From the NCBI GenBank assembly GCA_003344405.1, contig NOWV01000103.1, forward strand, positions 247,841-267,840: 20,000 nt of DNA. The letters run 5' to 3'. Each line of letters starts with the position of its first letter. Position 1 is the stretch's first letter. Below, in pieces: positions 11,001 to 19,457 of the stretch. Made by a program: the position numbers and the translations under genes. The stretch comes from Trichoplax sp. H2. Lineage: Eukaryota. The notes under the pieces are model-generated. The model saw nothing but the letters and a program-made list of their open reading frames with translations, was not told the DNA's origin and did no database searches.

Positions 11001-11006
11001 TTTATT
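11001..11006 (-). promoter_or_regulatory. Candidate polyadenylation signal (AATAAA) of gene A
   Basis: TTTATT on the + strand, ~55 nt downstream of the gene A stop. A second copy lies at 10930-10935. The hexamer is common in AT-rich DNA. Confidence 0.35.
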
Positions 11007-11059: not shown

Positions 11060-11316
11060 TTATTGGCATTCTATTTTCCACCGCATATAGCAACCATCAC
11101 TTCGATGATCTGTATCATCGCGATATGTTTGTGTATACTGAGGTGATGTAGACCAACCAGAACAAGTATTTCGGTTACCCTGACATTGGTCATAAGGGCC
11201 AGTTACAAGCAAACAAACTCGACAACGGGTAATAAGGCGACCATTTGCACTAATAACTTGTTGGGATAGTTGATCTATTCGACGGTTGATTTTTTGAAAT
11301 TGAGCTGGTATATATC
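11060..11316 (-). CDS. Gene A coding exon 3: end of coiled coil plus 6-Cys domain (invertebrate MACPF accessory domain / perivitellin-2 C-terminus-like)
   Basis: Acceptor ttttcatttcag| at 11317, phase 1, 257 nt to TAA. It translates (G)YIPAQFQKINRRIDQLSQQVISANGRLITRCRVCLLVTGPYDQCQGNRNTCSGWSTSPQYTQTYRDDTDHRSDGCYMRWKIECQ*. It is 52/85 identical, ungapped, to the exon at 17256-17512. The ORF track misses it. Confidence 0.93.
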
Positions 11317-11683
11317 CTGAAATGAAAATATTAGAAAATTATATTACAGTAATTCAGCCATAATTATAATTGATTTACAACTTCTACAACTTGTAAATTT
11401 GTGACATAATATCTATTATGTACTATAGTTGATAATATAATTTTTTGGTATACCCATTACAGTACTAAGATATTGCTATGATTAGCATACCTTGTGATTA
11501 CAATTTAATTACTTGACATGATAATTATATGATAACATTTTATTCTGCTTTGTGTTATAGATAATCTGTGTAAACCGAGCTACTATATGATGATTTTCGT
11601 TATTAATTTTGCGTAGTGAAACAATAAACTGTTAAGTTTTTCTTAACTTAGTTCATTTCTCTCAAATGCATAACATATCATGC

Positions 11684-11902
11684 TTACATTGCAATAGTAG
11701 ATCAAATTTTTGGCAACTGTAAATGAGTATAAGTTAACTAAAATGAATGCTATTAACCTTATTTTAATTTATTATATCCTTAACTAAGTCTGCGATATAA
11801 TATATTACATTGCAATAAAGAATCAAATTTTTGCCGAGTGTAAATGAAGTACAAGTTAATTTAAATAAATAATACTCGTATTAACCTTATATTAATTTAT
11901 TA
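11684..11902. repeat. Tandem duplication (period ~121-128 bp) in gene A intron 2
   Basis: TTACATTGCAATA..ATCAAATTTTTG..TGTAAATGA..AAGTTAA..TATTAACCTTATxTTAATTTATTA occurs at 11684-11774 and 11805-11902. Confidence 0.85.
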
Positions 11903-11998
11903 CCTGTATAAGCGTAATATTAAATTATTGAAAGTAAATTAGTTAAATCATTGCTATATTTAGGAATGTTGGATATGTGGATTAAATAATCACAGTAC

Positions 11999-12227
11999 CT
12001 GTTATGTTCAGCAATTGCTGATTTATGAGTAATACACTTTTGTCGGCGGCCTTTATTCTATACGTATTGGATGTTACGCTTTTTGACATAATTGAAACTT
12101 TCTCCTGAAGATCTTTCACCTTTTTTTTTAATTTTTTAATTCGATTCAGTAGTTTTTTTGTAGATGTATCGGTCTCTTTTTCGGCAACAGGTGCTCCTAC
12201 ATATTCATCACTTCTGTTATCGTCCAT
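11999..12227 (-). CDS. Gene A coding exon 2: coiled-coil region
   Basis: Acceptor attttaatattag| at 12228 (phase 0) and donor ACAG|gtactg at 11998 (phase 1, joining exon 3 as GGA). It encodes MDDNRSDEY...NQQLLNIT with continuous 4-3 core spacing (L26, I30, L33, V37, L40, V44, M47, V51, N54, I58, A61, V65, I68, L72, I75). This corresponds to ORF 11982..12227 without its intronic tail. Confidence 0.88.
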
Positions 12228-13404
12228 CTAATATTAAAATATTACTTTGATTAATTGTCTCATTCTATTTTAGGCAAGGTATGTACTTTATTGAAAGTTT
12301 AAGGAGCCAATTCCTATTTATACATAAGTGAAAATTTAACTAATCAAAGCTCATAAAGAGAGAATGAATACAAGTCTATTGCTAAGCTTTGCAGAATCAG
12401 TAATTATTCATACTGTAGTATAATTTAATACACTATAGAATAAGGGCGAATTTACAATCGGAGATACTCATGTCTCCTGTAAAGCTCAAATTCTGGAGAT
12501 TTTTTTCCATCATTGGATACCATCGCAATCGATTTACTTTCCTATACTAATCTCAGTAAAATTCCAATACAAAACAATCTACTACTTCGCCCATAGAGTA
12601 ATTGCGTAGGCATCAATTAGAGTAACTTTAAATATTATTTTGGCGAAAATAGCACTATCTACGGTATAGTTTCATCGAAGAGTCTGTACAGCGCGAACAA
12701 ATAAGCATTCTTATCGGTAGCGTATTTTAGATTTTGTAATCTAAAATAAAAGATAAGTTAGTAATTTCTGTTTAATGAGTCAATTTATGACAAAGATTTC
12801 TATAAGCACGACGGATATCAAATCTTTTACTACTCTTGTATGCATATTTACTCATCAAATCATCAACTTTAACCCATAAAATGCAAACTCTAAATTGACG
12901 GAATGTACTGATGCTAAATACTTATTTATAAAAGGATTTAAGCCTACATGAAAAAATAAATATGCATACTCAGTATGCTATATATAAAGATGGTTCATCA
13001 TTAGTTTTTTGTTTAGTTATAAGAAACATTAATCTTTAAAAAATGAGTAAAATAGCACGCAAAAATGAAATAACAGTAGTTTTTTACTATTCTTACGCTA
13101 GGTTAGTACATTATTCTTGAGCGTTATCAACTGCATATATTTTGTGATTAAACATTAACGCTTGATATTACTATTTGCGTTCATAAAATTGCACTTTATG
13201 GTGTATTTCATAAACTCATCCACTGAAATGTAGGATTATGGTATACCAGTTTTATTGTCATTTCGTATGATTGGGTAGTAGTACAAATACATACAATTTG
13301 TATTTGGTGGTATTTTATGATAAGCATAAGTAACAGTTTCTCATATAATATCACATCAATACATTATAGATAATTAAATGATTGTAAATTAATTTCGTGT
13401 TATA

Positions 13405-13587
13405 ATTGTAGACTATTAGCCATGTTTAGTATGATGTACGGTGGTGTCTTTCTATATTTATCGTATGATATATTTAGTAGCTCATAATTATAAACTGTAA
13501 GGATAGACTCTATGCTAGAGTACGGATGACTATATACAGTAATTTGTTGAGCTACTAATAAGGCTAGAGGTAGAAATAGAATTGTAA
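13405..13587. other. Conserved, hairpin-forming intronic element (copy 1, gene A intron 1)
   Basis: Shares a 28 bp identical block (ATTGTAGACTATTAGCCATGTTTAGTAT) and an 18 bp identical block (TATGCTAGAGTACGGATG) with 19267-19457. Nested inverted repeats lie at 13474-13484/13548-13558, 13494-13499/13535-13540 and 13507-13512/13516-13521. Confidence 0.8.
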
Positions 13588-13965
13588 AACATTTATTAGG
13601 ACATGCTTATTTCATTGTGCTTTGACTAGTAGGAATAATGTCCACGTAAATACTGTAATCATTTCTATATTAGATTAATGAGGGTTCGCTGTAAAATATT
13701 GTGACTAATAATAAACTGAATACGGTGTAAAATATGGTAGAATGCTGCTATGCGGATTGTAGCTGCGAAGGGTACGAAGAGTATAAAAGCAGGAGACATT
13801 AGATTATCTGATTATTCTTTCTAGAAGTCTTTCGGTAGTTGTATTCGGCTAGAGTAGAGCTGTATGTAGCTAGTCTTTGTATTATAAGTTCTAATTTTCT
13901 ACAACTTTGGAACTTTCATGATCGGATTTTATCACAATGATCTATTGGTAAGATTTACGACTTAC

Positions 13966-14031
13966 AAAAGAACAGGAAGAGGACACGATAGCCATCAAGA
14001 TTAAGAACGAGATCAGTAATTTCTTGTCCAT
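13966..14031 (-). CDS. Gene A coding exon 1: signal peptide
   Basis: ATG at 14031 (context aaagcATGg) encodes MDKKLLISFLILMAIVSSSCSF, with a basic N-region, hydrophobic core and small-residue C-region. It is followed by a phase-0 donor |gtaagt at 13965, in frame with exon 2. The spliced CDS is 552 nt, giving 183 aa. Confidence 0.85.
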
Positions 14032-16114: not shown

Positions 16115-16134
16115 NNNNNNNNNNNNNNNNNNNN
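16115..16134. other. Assembly gap (20 N)
   Basis: Run of 20 N. Confidence 1.
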
Positions 16135-17255: not shown

Positions 17256-17512
17256 TTATTGGCATTCCCATTTCCAATACATATAGCAACCACCTCCTCG
17301 ATTATCTGTATCATCTCTATAGTATTTTATATAGCCTGGGGATGTAGACCAATATGAGCAAGTATTTTGATAATCTTGACATTGATCATGCGGTCCTGTT
17401 GCGTGTAGACAAACTCGACAGCGTCTGATAAATTCCTTACTTTTAGCATCAATTTTTGCATATAATTGAGTGATGCGATGATTTATCTTAACGATTTGTT
17501 TTGGTATATATC
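17256..17512 (-). CDS. Gene B last exon (intact): coiled-coil end plus 6-Cys domain, paralogue of gene A exon 3
   Basis: Acceptor tttctttgctcattatag| at 17513, with the same phase and the same 257 nt length as gene A exon 3. It translates (G)YIPKQIVKINHRITQLYAKIDAKSKEFIRRCRVCLHATGPHDQCQDYQNTCSYWSTSPGYIKYYRDDTDNRGGGCYMYWKWECQ*. The first residues of ORF 17256..17525 are intronic. Confidence 0.88.
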
Positions 17513-18216: not shown

Positions 18217-18698
18217 TGGATAATTGCTGCTGATCACAAGCTTTTTGTAAAGGTCGCAAAACTGCGCTATACAGTTAACTCTTGCACTCACAAAGCGAGA
18301 TTAAGGGCATTGATATTTTGAAGTATCATTGCGTTAGTGAATTACAATTTATTGCATGCATGGTATATGCAGGAGTATAGGTGACTGGGTATGGTAACAA
18401 AGTGCTAAAGTATTATGATAATCAATCTTAGACTTAATCTAATTTTTGATCATTAACATTTCAAATTTTAAATTCTTTTTTAATCTTGTGGGCACGATGT
18501 TTGTAAATTTGATGGCCTAAACTCCAATCTAGTATAAATTGTAGATATTCAGAAAATGCAAATATTATTGTCACAAAACAGCTTTCGTGATCGTTCCTAA
18601 ACTATCTACTACAATTCCCCGGCTAACTCTAGAGATCCTCAGTAAAGGAAAACTAACTTATTCCTATAGTATAGAAATCGAGTCCAACGATTGGTTTA
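18217..18698. mobile_element. Putative ~480 bp insertion or rearranged segment interrupting gene B exon 2
   Basis: Lies between the two exon-2 pieces and supplies the TAA stop. It contains an inverted homologue of the region around 10887-10911. No terminal inverted repeats or clear target-site duplication were seen. Confidence 0.45.
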
Positions 18699-18821
18699 TT
18701 GAAGGAGATTAACTTTTATTGTTAGCTTGCGAATTTGACAACATAAGTCGCACGAGAATTTATCCTTTTTTCCACCATCATTTGCTGACGATATTTTAAT
18801 CACTTCGTTATTTATCTCACC
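18696..18821 (-). pseudogene. Gene B exon 2, 5' part, ending in a premature stop
   Basis: Acceptor taattctag| at 18822, phase 0. GEINNEVIKISSANDGGKKDKFSCDLCCQIRKLTIKVNLLQ* is colinear and ungapped with gene A exon-2 residues 1-41 (identical N4, D20, L26, I30, K32, L33, K36, V37, L40, Q41), followed by TAA at 18698-18696. Confidence 0.75.
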
Positions 18822-19266
18822 CTAGAATTATTATAACGAAATTTGTTAGCTTTTTAATTATTTATCACTTATAAAGATATTCATCTAGATTATAATGATA
18901 AAAATAAGCCAAAATTTTAGTGGTTAGATTAGCTATGAAAACAGCATTTAAATATGCTGCTATCTTAATTTCTATCTTCAGTTACATATTATAGTAAAAT
19001 AACATAGAAATGTTGGAATTGAATATTATATCGACGATTAATAAGGTATCAGTGTGTATGATAACAATATATTCGTAAATAATGCAAAATTTGAAAATGA
19101 ATTGATATTGATCATTAATAAGATGCTAATATGTATTAGTATTTAATCTAGTTTCTATCTTCGATTTTACATATATTAGCGAAGAAAGCAGAAAATTGGA
19201 AATAAAATACTTTTGACTACTTATAACATGTTTGTGTGTATCATTGTAATGTATCTTAGTATTGGG

Positions 19267-19457
19267 ATTGTAGACTATTAGCCATGTTTAGTATTGATGT
19301 AGGGTAGCGCGACTTTCTATATTTATCTTAAGACATATTTAGTAGCTTATGTCCGTAGGCTATAGATGCTATAGATTCTACAGTATGCTAGAGTACGGAT
19401 GGCTATATACGGTAGGGTATCGAGTTACTAAATTCAGAGGTAAAAAAAGAACCGTAA
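19267..19457. other. Conserved, hairpin-forming intronic element (copy 2, gene B intron 1 position)
   Basis: Homologous to 13405-13587, in the same orientation and the same position relative to exon 2. Stems lie at 19338-19348/19422-19432 and 19353-19357/19408-19412. Confidence 0.8.

Follow-up and report, generated by a model that had tools for sequence, protein, structure and literature searches.

A gene on the reverse strand of a 20 kb stretch of DNA from Trichoplax sp. H2 (the whole stretch is called the window below) encodes a predicted protein whose C-terminal head is, by sequence comparison, homologous to the C-terminal repeats of MACPF proteins. On balance, we regard the locus as a placozoan gene that is intact and specifies a small secreted product of 183 aa, which we call P0154, and with similar assurance we assign four parts to it: a signal peptide, a short acidic stretch at the N-terminus, a stalk of coiled coil, and a C-terminal module of 57 aa with three disulfides. 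The accessory region named IMAD in a snail toxin, described once and never dissected, appears from the sequences of related proteins to be three tandem copies of this module; the new element here is the single module on a coiled-coil stalk. Our best explanation, to which we give slightly better than even chances, is that a three-module unit is built on a trimeric stalk in the Trichoplax protein and that its head would bind a surface component. The observation is more than chance because the window holds a paralogous last exon and because 169 protein clusters match the module.

Homology of the Head to MACPF-Linked Repeats

The head is encoded by the last exon together with the end of the stalk. 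When this exon-3 peptide was compared with 1.84 billion cluster representatives, 169 clusters matched at E<=1e-3 and 72 at E<=1e-10, which puts the size of the family at a minimum of 169 clusters at 50% identity. The family consensus is CRVCFxETEGSxQCQGxRxxCSGWSxxPxWTxxFRDDTDxRxGGCxYQWxxEC, and the P0154 head keeps 13 of its 15 nearly invariant columns. The head motif written down in the preliminary description, which was made from the DNA sequence alone, stands except for one spacer: eight residues, not seven, separate CSGWS from YRDDTD.

That description had also likened the head to the C-terminal, Cys-rich part of MACPF proteins from invertebrates, and both phmmer matches and a profile score bear this out. 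A phmmer search with the exon-3 peptide reaches P0123 (E 4.0e-7, whole library) and P0073, proteins of Physella acuta and Oppia nitens that carry the NCBI name "perivitellin-2 67 kDa subunit-like"; further MACPF proteins with the module come from Darwinula and Bradybaena. On a profile of 15 repeats from five MACPF-bearing proteins, P0154 scores 35.7 bits (E 7.6e-10) and the product of the paralogous exon scores 31.7 bits. Because the best of 2000 shuffles of the head reaches only 11.4 bits on the same profile, we regard the proposed likeness to the IMAD as real homology, on a comparison made with PV2-67-like proteins.

In the parts of the snail preprint drawn on here, the IMAD comprises residues 336-565 (∼230 aa) of PmPV2-67, following the MACPF domain, and is described as exclusive to invertebrates and of unknown structure; a tachylectin (lectin) chain is disulfide-bonded to the MACPF chain at the IMAD region, and membrane recognition is the role that the authors propose (Giglio et al., bioRxiv 10.1101/2019.12.23.880021). 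This was the only paper on the IMAD that we found in the literature. No paper combining perivitellin-2, MACPF, and AlphaFold turned up in the literature search, and no title on the structure of the IMAD appeared among the matches listed for PV2, MACPF, and tachylectin since 2020.

Three copies of the module are present in each of P0123 (residues 332-388, 394-452, and 459-515), P0078, P0112, P0137, and P0073, and one copy in P0154 (residues 127-183). Since the C-terminal stretch of the PV2-67-like proteins consists of three tandem copies, the Trichoplax head would correspond to one third of an IMAD and not to the whole. The MACPF-linked copies form a subtype with four Cys and the motif WF...LCF.W..DGDGGQCGGG...LCA...YRDDTD.RGGGC.M.W., while the Trichoplax head belongs to the six-Cys "EGSSQC" subtype (CRVC...CSGWS); the Trichoplax head has YRDDTD and C.MRW in common with the MACPF-linked subtype. 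Like the IMAD of Pomacea PV2-67, to whose PV2-67-like counterparts its sequence is homologous, the head is Cys-rich, extracellular, and of unknown structure and function. It differs in being one ∼57 aa unit on a coiled-coil stalk, in a protein that lacks a MACPF domain.

That absence, which the preliminary description had asserted, is confirmed by Pfam for P0154 and by tblastn for the window, where searches with seven MACPF proteins match only the two module exons and disclose no MACPF-like coding sequence. Among 150 relatives, Pfam finds an N-terminal MACPF domain in 7, MAM in 2, collagen in 1, and MopE repeats in 1; it places no family over the module in any of them and none in the P0154 head at E<=10. 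NCBIfam has no family for the module. Searches of the PDB by sequence with the exon-3 peptide, the family profiles A3 and A4, and a PV2-67-like protein returned nothing meaningful, and the ESM Atlas gave no usable match. The suggestion of an undescribed family thus stands, in that no Pfam, NCBIfam, or PDB entry covers the module. No paper found in the literature search mentions the gene identifier TrispH2_006780, and nothing relevant by title was among the matches listed for Trichoplax and MACPF.

Copy Number, Stalks, and Cysteine Pairs

In 151 proteins (the 150 relatives and the query) the module occurs once in 105, three times in 30, and twice in 16. Most single copies are terminal, 77 of the 105 ending <=3 residues from the C-terminus, and in the triples one repeat follows another with a median period of 64 residues. 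Heptad or collagen stalks come before single copies but not before triples. Over the 28 residues that precede the module, z>=2 on a home-made and crude heptad score is attained by 46 of 92 single-copy proteins and by none of 24 triple-copy proteins, and collagen GXY runs precede the single copy in P0070 and P0085, both from metagenome-assembled genomes (MAGs) of Candidatus Kentron. In P0154 itself the same score stays significant, without a change of register, between residues ∼43 and 98; at the exon 2/3 junction, G99-Y-I-P102, the heptads move to another register, and the signal can be followed as far as residue 126. The stalk spans ∼85 residues in total and the heptads number ∼12, so that the predicted coiled coil with its Pro break is seen, at slightly greater length than the 10-11 heptads first counted. 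The sequence contains no GXY run and has heptad periodicity instead; in Pfam, exon 2 matches coiled-coil families below threshold only.

Of 148 fully aligned instances of the module, 110 have Cys1 together with Cys6, 36 have neither, and 2 are discordant. In triples the first two repeats lack this pair, which occurs in last copies and in single ones. Actinomycete repeats retain Cys3 and Cys5 only. From the co-occurrence of Cys1 with Cys6, taken with the Cys3 and Cys5 of the actinomycetes, we infer disulfides 1-6, 2-4, and 3-5, which in the Trichoplax protein would link residues 130-182, 133-150, and 143-174.

Several relatives combine the module with other parts. The Candidatus Kentron proteins P0085, P0157, and P0070, from a lineage of ciliate symbionts, carry one C-terminal module together with MAM and a collagen triple-helix run, an architecture of animal appearance within bacterial bins. 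Further architectures, seen in P0098, P0124, and P0128, in P0186 and P0194, and in P0214, include TSP1 repeats before triple repeats and a subtilase domain with the module; in P0098, P0124, and P0128 the triple repeats follow a Cys motif (GDGWCD..CN......DGGDCC) that we take to be Notch/LNR-like. In the single-copy proteins P0019, P0092, and P0028, an internal hydrophobic segment near the N-terminus takes the place of a signal peptide, which points to a stalk-and-head design of the same kind anchored as a type II membrane protein.

Structure Models and Fold Searches

An AlphaFold2 model of the exon-3 peptide, computed with an 86-row alignment, contains a helix (4-25) and three strands (31-38, 48-51, and 76-83) at a mean predicted local distance difference test (pLDDT) of 82.7. 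The triple repeat of P0005, modeled with a 27-row alignment, is a compact and confident all-beta globule (pLDDT 87.3, predicted template modeling score 0.83). Three copies of the 84 aa exon-3 peptide were then given to ESMFold2, which used no alignment. The resulting trimer model scores 0.54 (runs 0.57, 0.54, and 0.48), and the best of three controls scores 0.00. The model passes a mark that is reached by 21 of 30 solved one-chain pairs and 0 of 23 single chains from microbes; the calibration used two copies, so these counts are only roughly valid for a three-copy model. Among eukaryotic proteins, 17 of 29 solved as pairs reach the mark and none of 30 single chains does. Contacts agree at >=89% between runs, with a partner pLDDT of >=64. 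The modeled interface is made of the a/d positions 2, 6, 9, 13, 16, 20, 23, and 27 together with strands 31-38, 56-62, and 76-84 of the head, so arranged that the last strand of one chain is placed next to the first strand of another. Self-association of the exon-3 peptide is supported by the model, and the oligomerizing stalk of the preliminary description is to this extent predicted, by a model and not by a measurement.

The fold searches gave no counterpart in the PDB for either model. For the single-module model the best Foldseek E is 0.75 and the best Z in the VIA wide search is 3.4; for the triple-repeat model the best Foldseek E is 0.033, at a TM of ∼0.15, and the best Z is 3.1 in the VIA wide search and 2.6 in a second look. 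On this scale, models with no clear match typically still reach Z 7-8. The fold is possibly new, and weak matches do not prove one. TNF-like and GFP-like rows were considered as relatives and rejected as lying at noise level.

Distribution and Phylogeny

The module had been tied to invertebrate MACPF proteins, but it is not confined to them: only 7 of the 150 relatives have a MACPF domain, and bacteria, a Woesearchaeota cluster, and a foraminifer carry the module. A scan of prokaryotes, with one genome per species and a 10-row domain alignment as the query, found 32 module loci in bacterial genomes. They lie in chromosome-level MAGs of a Spirochaetia bacterium and an unclassified bacterium, in Porticoccaceae, Arenicellales, and Poriferihabitaceae, in Patescibacteria, and in actinomycetes (12 Streptomyces, also Kutzneria). 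When open reading frames (ORFs) from 22 of the 32 loci were scored with the family profile, all 22 passed at E<0.01 with Z=1.8e9, and the scored actinomycete ORFs have three repeats. A 155 aa spirochaete protein (locus L003) shares the layout of the Trichoplax protein, namely a signal peptide, a helix, and the module. The genes flanking loci L003, L006, and L024 offer no functional hint, with a sulfatase, GmrSD, DUF433, and otherwise nothing.

The foraminifer Bolivina argentea has a MACPF protein with the module, which also occurs in coral, sponge, rotifers, molluscs, and mites. Among archaea, the Woesearchaeota cluster P0066 has it (P0238, Candidatus Woesearchaeota archaeon; 65 contigs). When 170 distinct six-Cys modules are placed in one tree, the two copies from Trichoplax come out as sisters at a support of 0.975. 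The 55-column tree seats this pair with Arenicellales, Poriferihabitaceae, and the Woesearchaeota cluster at supports of 0.54 and 0.78, a hint that the Trichoplax copies may belong among prokaryotic members.

Two groups have features of their own. The Streptomyces loci L013-L024, with L027 and L029-L031 (Actinocrispum, Kutzneria), encode secreted proteins of ∼210-270 aa with three degenerate module copies (for example L024:3695-4519), each copy having two Cys (QC ... GGC) and the motif DTDxRAGGC; these triple-copy proteins have no Pfam or NCBIfam match. The Woesearchaeota (DPANN) protein has one module with the deviant motifs TQTY.DDTD and C.MRW, like the Trichoplax head.

Proposed Working of the Protein

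We propose that the working unit of the family would always be a globule of three modules, because copy number follows a 1-or-3 pattern, single copies go with stalks, the triple-repeat model is compact, and the trimer model passes its mark. In MACPF proteins and many short secreted proteins, a single chain would supply all three modules as tandem repeats. Most family members, the Trichoplax protein among them, would instead join three single modules on a trimeric coiled-coil stalk, and in two Candidatus Kentron MAG proteins a collagen stalk would replace the coiled coil. The product would be a secreted homotrimer whose head reproduces an IMAD. As accessory domains of pore-formers suggest by analogy, such a head may bind a surface component, be it a glycan, lipid, or protein ligand, and, presented on its stalk, it would serve in recognition or adhesion as a soluble protein. 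The W...RDDTDxRxGGC loop, which is conserved and does not appear on the list of confident interface residues, is the candidate ligand or metal site.

Collectins, ficolins, and C1q-type proteins also follow a signal peptide with a trimerizing stalk and a small C-terminal head, and they display this head multivalently. The parallel with them, drawn in the preliminary description, holds for the architecture, which the Trichoplax protein shares, and two relatives even have a collagen stalk. It does not extend to the parts: the Trichoplax stalk is a predicted alpha-helical coiled coil, not collagen, and its head has no C-type lectin, fibrinogen-like, or gC1q match in Pfam and so matches none of their head families.

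A close parallel in working principle is the APC-beta domain of Toxoplasma PLP1. As given in the parts of the report drawn on here, it is a C-terminal accessory domain of a MACPF protein, built of three homologous disulfide-bonded beta repeats (∼80 residues and two disulfides each) with threefold pseudosymmetry as a beta-prism, and it binds membranes (PMC5943054). A three-repeat accessory unit is what we propose for the Trichoplax module. No PDB chain relates APC-beta to the module at E<=10 with the profiles A3 and A4, and APC-beta is not among the listed fold matches, the best of which has Z 3.1 for the triple-repeat model; with neither a sequence nor a fold relation found, we treat it as an analogue only.

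A wider version of the proposal is distinctly more tentative. The module may be an ancient disulfide-stapled block, of a fold not yet seen and common to bacteria, archaea, protists, and animals, that works only as a threefold unit. This unit would be reached either by tandem triplication (the MACPF IMAD, the short secreted triples, and the two-Cys triples of actinomycetes) or by mounting single modules on trimeric coiled-coil or collagen stalks, and the Trichoplax protein would be a minimal soluble "IMAD lectin" for pattern recognition or surface targeting. If this were true, the protein would be a pattern-recognition or surface-targeting protein in one of the simplest animals and a handle on what the snail-type MACPF accessory domain recognizes.

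The comparison itself indicates that the IMAD, named once as a ∼230 aa region, is a triplicated unit of 57-64 aa; the domain is thereby split into units, has a testable disulfide map, and belongs to a family much wider than described. This family lacks a counterpart in Pfam, NCBIfam, and the PDB, its best fold match has Z 3.4, and it is a candidate for a new domain entry. The Trichoplax protein offers a small, probably trimeric version suited to work on fold and ligand, and knowledge of both would be relevant to the question of how invertebrate MACPF proteins, those of the perivitellin-2 type among them, reach their targets. The spread of the module over host-associated bacterial MAGs (sponge and ciliate symbiont lineages), Streptomyces, and animals raises the question of cross-kingdom transfer.

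Counterevidence and Rival Explanations

Several observations weigh against a threefold, surface-binding head in the Trichoplax protein. The 16 two-copy proteins fall outside the 1-or-3 pattern; 7 of them begin <=15 residues from the first copy and may be fragments, which leaves 9 unexplained. Half of the single-copy proteins examined (46 of 92) fall below z>=2 on the home-made heptad score. In the monomer model the most conserved loop (block 61-70) is the least confident part, at a pLDDT of 66; the trimer model has a modest pLDDT of 64-72, and three copies is the sole stoichiometry modeled. That the triple repeat packs with pseudo-threefold symmetry, and that it is equivalent to the modeled trimer head, are both steps that we infer. 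At 2 of the 15 nearly invariant columns the Trichoplax head has another residue than the family: L in place of F after CRVC, and D in place of G before GC. P0154 is the one member of its 90%-identity cluster, and no Trichoplax adhaerens orthologue turned up in the whole-protein search.

Fibritin foldon and the C-terminal trimerization domain of collagen are examples of small domains that serve assembly. The main rival, which we think unlikely but would not call remote, is that the module is likewise mainly an assembly knot that nucleates and registers a trimeric stalk, the activity residing in the stalk or in the acidic N-terminus. It would account well for the 77 of 105 single copies that lie at the very C-terminus directly behind heptad or collagen stalks, for the restriction of the Cys1-Cys6 staple to terminal or single copies, and for the part that the head strands take in the modeled interchain interface. 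It accounts poorly for the 30 of 151 proteins that have three tandem copies with no stalk before them: these are triple within one chain, and chain trimerization is therefore not needed there. Moreover, the most conserved residues (W and RDDTDxRxGGC) lie outside the confident interface of the trimer model, and the N-terminal part of the Trichoplax protein, where the activity would have to be sought, is short and found no relatives in the whole-protein search. The remaining readings are less likely still. One makes the protein the partner of a MACPF pore-former, as a targeting subunit or a decoy that pairs or competes with IMAD-bearing MACPF proteins. The module is indeed common to the Trichoplax protein and the seven MACPF proteins among the relatives, and in the snail toxin, according to the parts of the preprint used here, the lectin chain is disulfide-bonded at just this region (10.1101/2019.12.23.880021). 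We nevertheless judge this improbable, given a window with no MACPF-like sequence and the 143 of 150 scanned relatives that have no MACPF domain, many of them in bacterial genomes.

A lineage-specific acquisition from prokaryotes, perhaps symbionts or food bacteria, whose product would act as bacterial proteins of signal peptide, helix, and module do, for example as a surface adhesin turned secreted protein, is about equally improbable in our estimation. The same layout exists on bacterial chromosomes, as at L003, and both Trichoplax copies group with prokaryotic members in the 55-column tree, but this placement is weakly supported at 0.54 and 0.78, and the gene has two spliceosomal introns, a host-like GC content of 30%, and an old tandem duplicate with dS ∼1; corals, sponges, rotifers, molluscs, and mites carry the module too. 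Least probable of all, and in our view very much so, is that the gene model is an artefact of annotation or that the gene is silent and yields no protein. In favor of this reading, the neighboring paralogue has a degenerate exon 2 with an in-frame stop. Against it, the gene itself has three phase-compatible exons with canonical sites, an intact predicted signal peptide, all six Cys, and the 13 retained columns. The last exons of the two copies differ at a ratio of nonsynonymous to synonymous substitutions (dN/dS) of 0.32 over a dS of ∼1.0, with no stop or frameshift in either, in AT-rich DNA where stops are frequent; by this comparison the paralogous last exon is under purifying selection.

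Gene Structure, Paralogue, and the Rest of the Window

The gene structure is given in Table 1. The joined translations of the three exons make up P0154, which is identical to the NCBI entry "hypothetical protein TrispH2_006780 [Trichoplax sp. H2]" found by a protein search; the exons, coordinates, splice phases, and length proposed at the outset are in this way borne out. Residues 1-22 comprise MDKK, a 12-residue hydrophobic run (mean Kyte-Doolittle value 3.22), and SSSCSF, and the proposed signal peptide looks right by eye and by hydropathy, the two grounds on which we call it. The protein match marks the window as placozoan nuclear DNA; its GC content is ∼30%.

Table 1. Features of the Trichoplax gene (gene 1) and its paralogue in the window
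Feature	Position	Strand	Remarks
Exon 1	13966..14031	-	66 nt; start codon ATG at 14031; phase 0 end; donor gtaag; encodes the signal-peptide-like N-terminus MDKKLLISFLILMAIVSSSCSF
Intron 1	12228..13965	-	gt...ag; holds the 210 bp block 13378-13587
Exon 2	11999..12227	-	229 nt; tattag before, gtactg after; phase 1 end; acidic N-terminal stretch, then ∼8 predicted heptads
Intron 2	11317..11998	-	gtactg...tttcag
Exon 3	11060..11316	-	last 4 predicted heptads, 57 aa six-Cys head, stop TAA at 11062-11060
Head module, residues 127-183	11063..11233	-	one IMAD-type repeat; Cys 130, 133, 143, 150, 174, 182
AATAAA, possible poly(A) signal	11001..11006	-	54-59 nt past the stop; read from the sequence; such hexamers are common in 30% GC DNA
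Paralogous last exon	17256..17512	-	same acceptor phase (tatag|GA TAT); peptide 61% identical; all six Cys; stop TAA
Exon-2-like remnant of the paralogue	18696..18821	-	(…QIRKLTIKVNLLQ*); in-frame stop where gene 1 reads on

The paralogous last exon sits 6 kb upstream of gene 1 on the same strand. As this terminal exon stands between gene 1 and anything further upstream, it is unlikely that the exons of gene 1 are spliced onto an upstream MACPF region. Upstream of the paralogous last exon, the degenerate exon-2-like stretch with its stop is all that turned up in the window; exon 1 of the paralogue may lie at or beyond the window end, and the paralogue may differ in its 5' structure or may be a copy in decay. 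Elsewhere in the window, six long ORFs have no Pfam match above the cutoff, and there is no Rfam family and no tandem repeat. The intron 1 block has a counterpart of 75% identity at 19240-19457, on the upstream side of the paralogous last exon, and an assembly gap of 20 N separates the two paralogues at 16115-16134.

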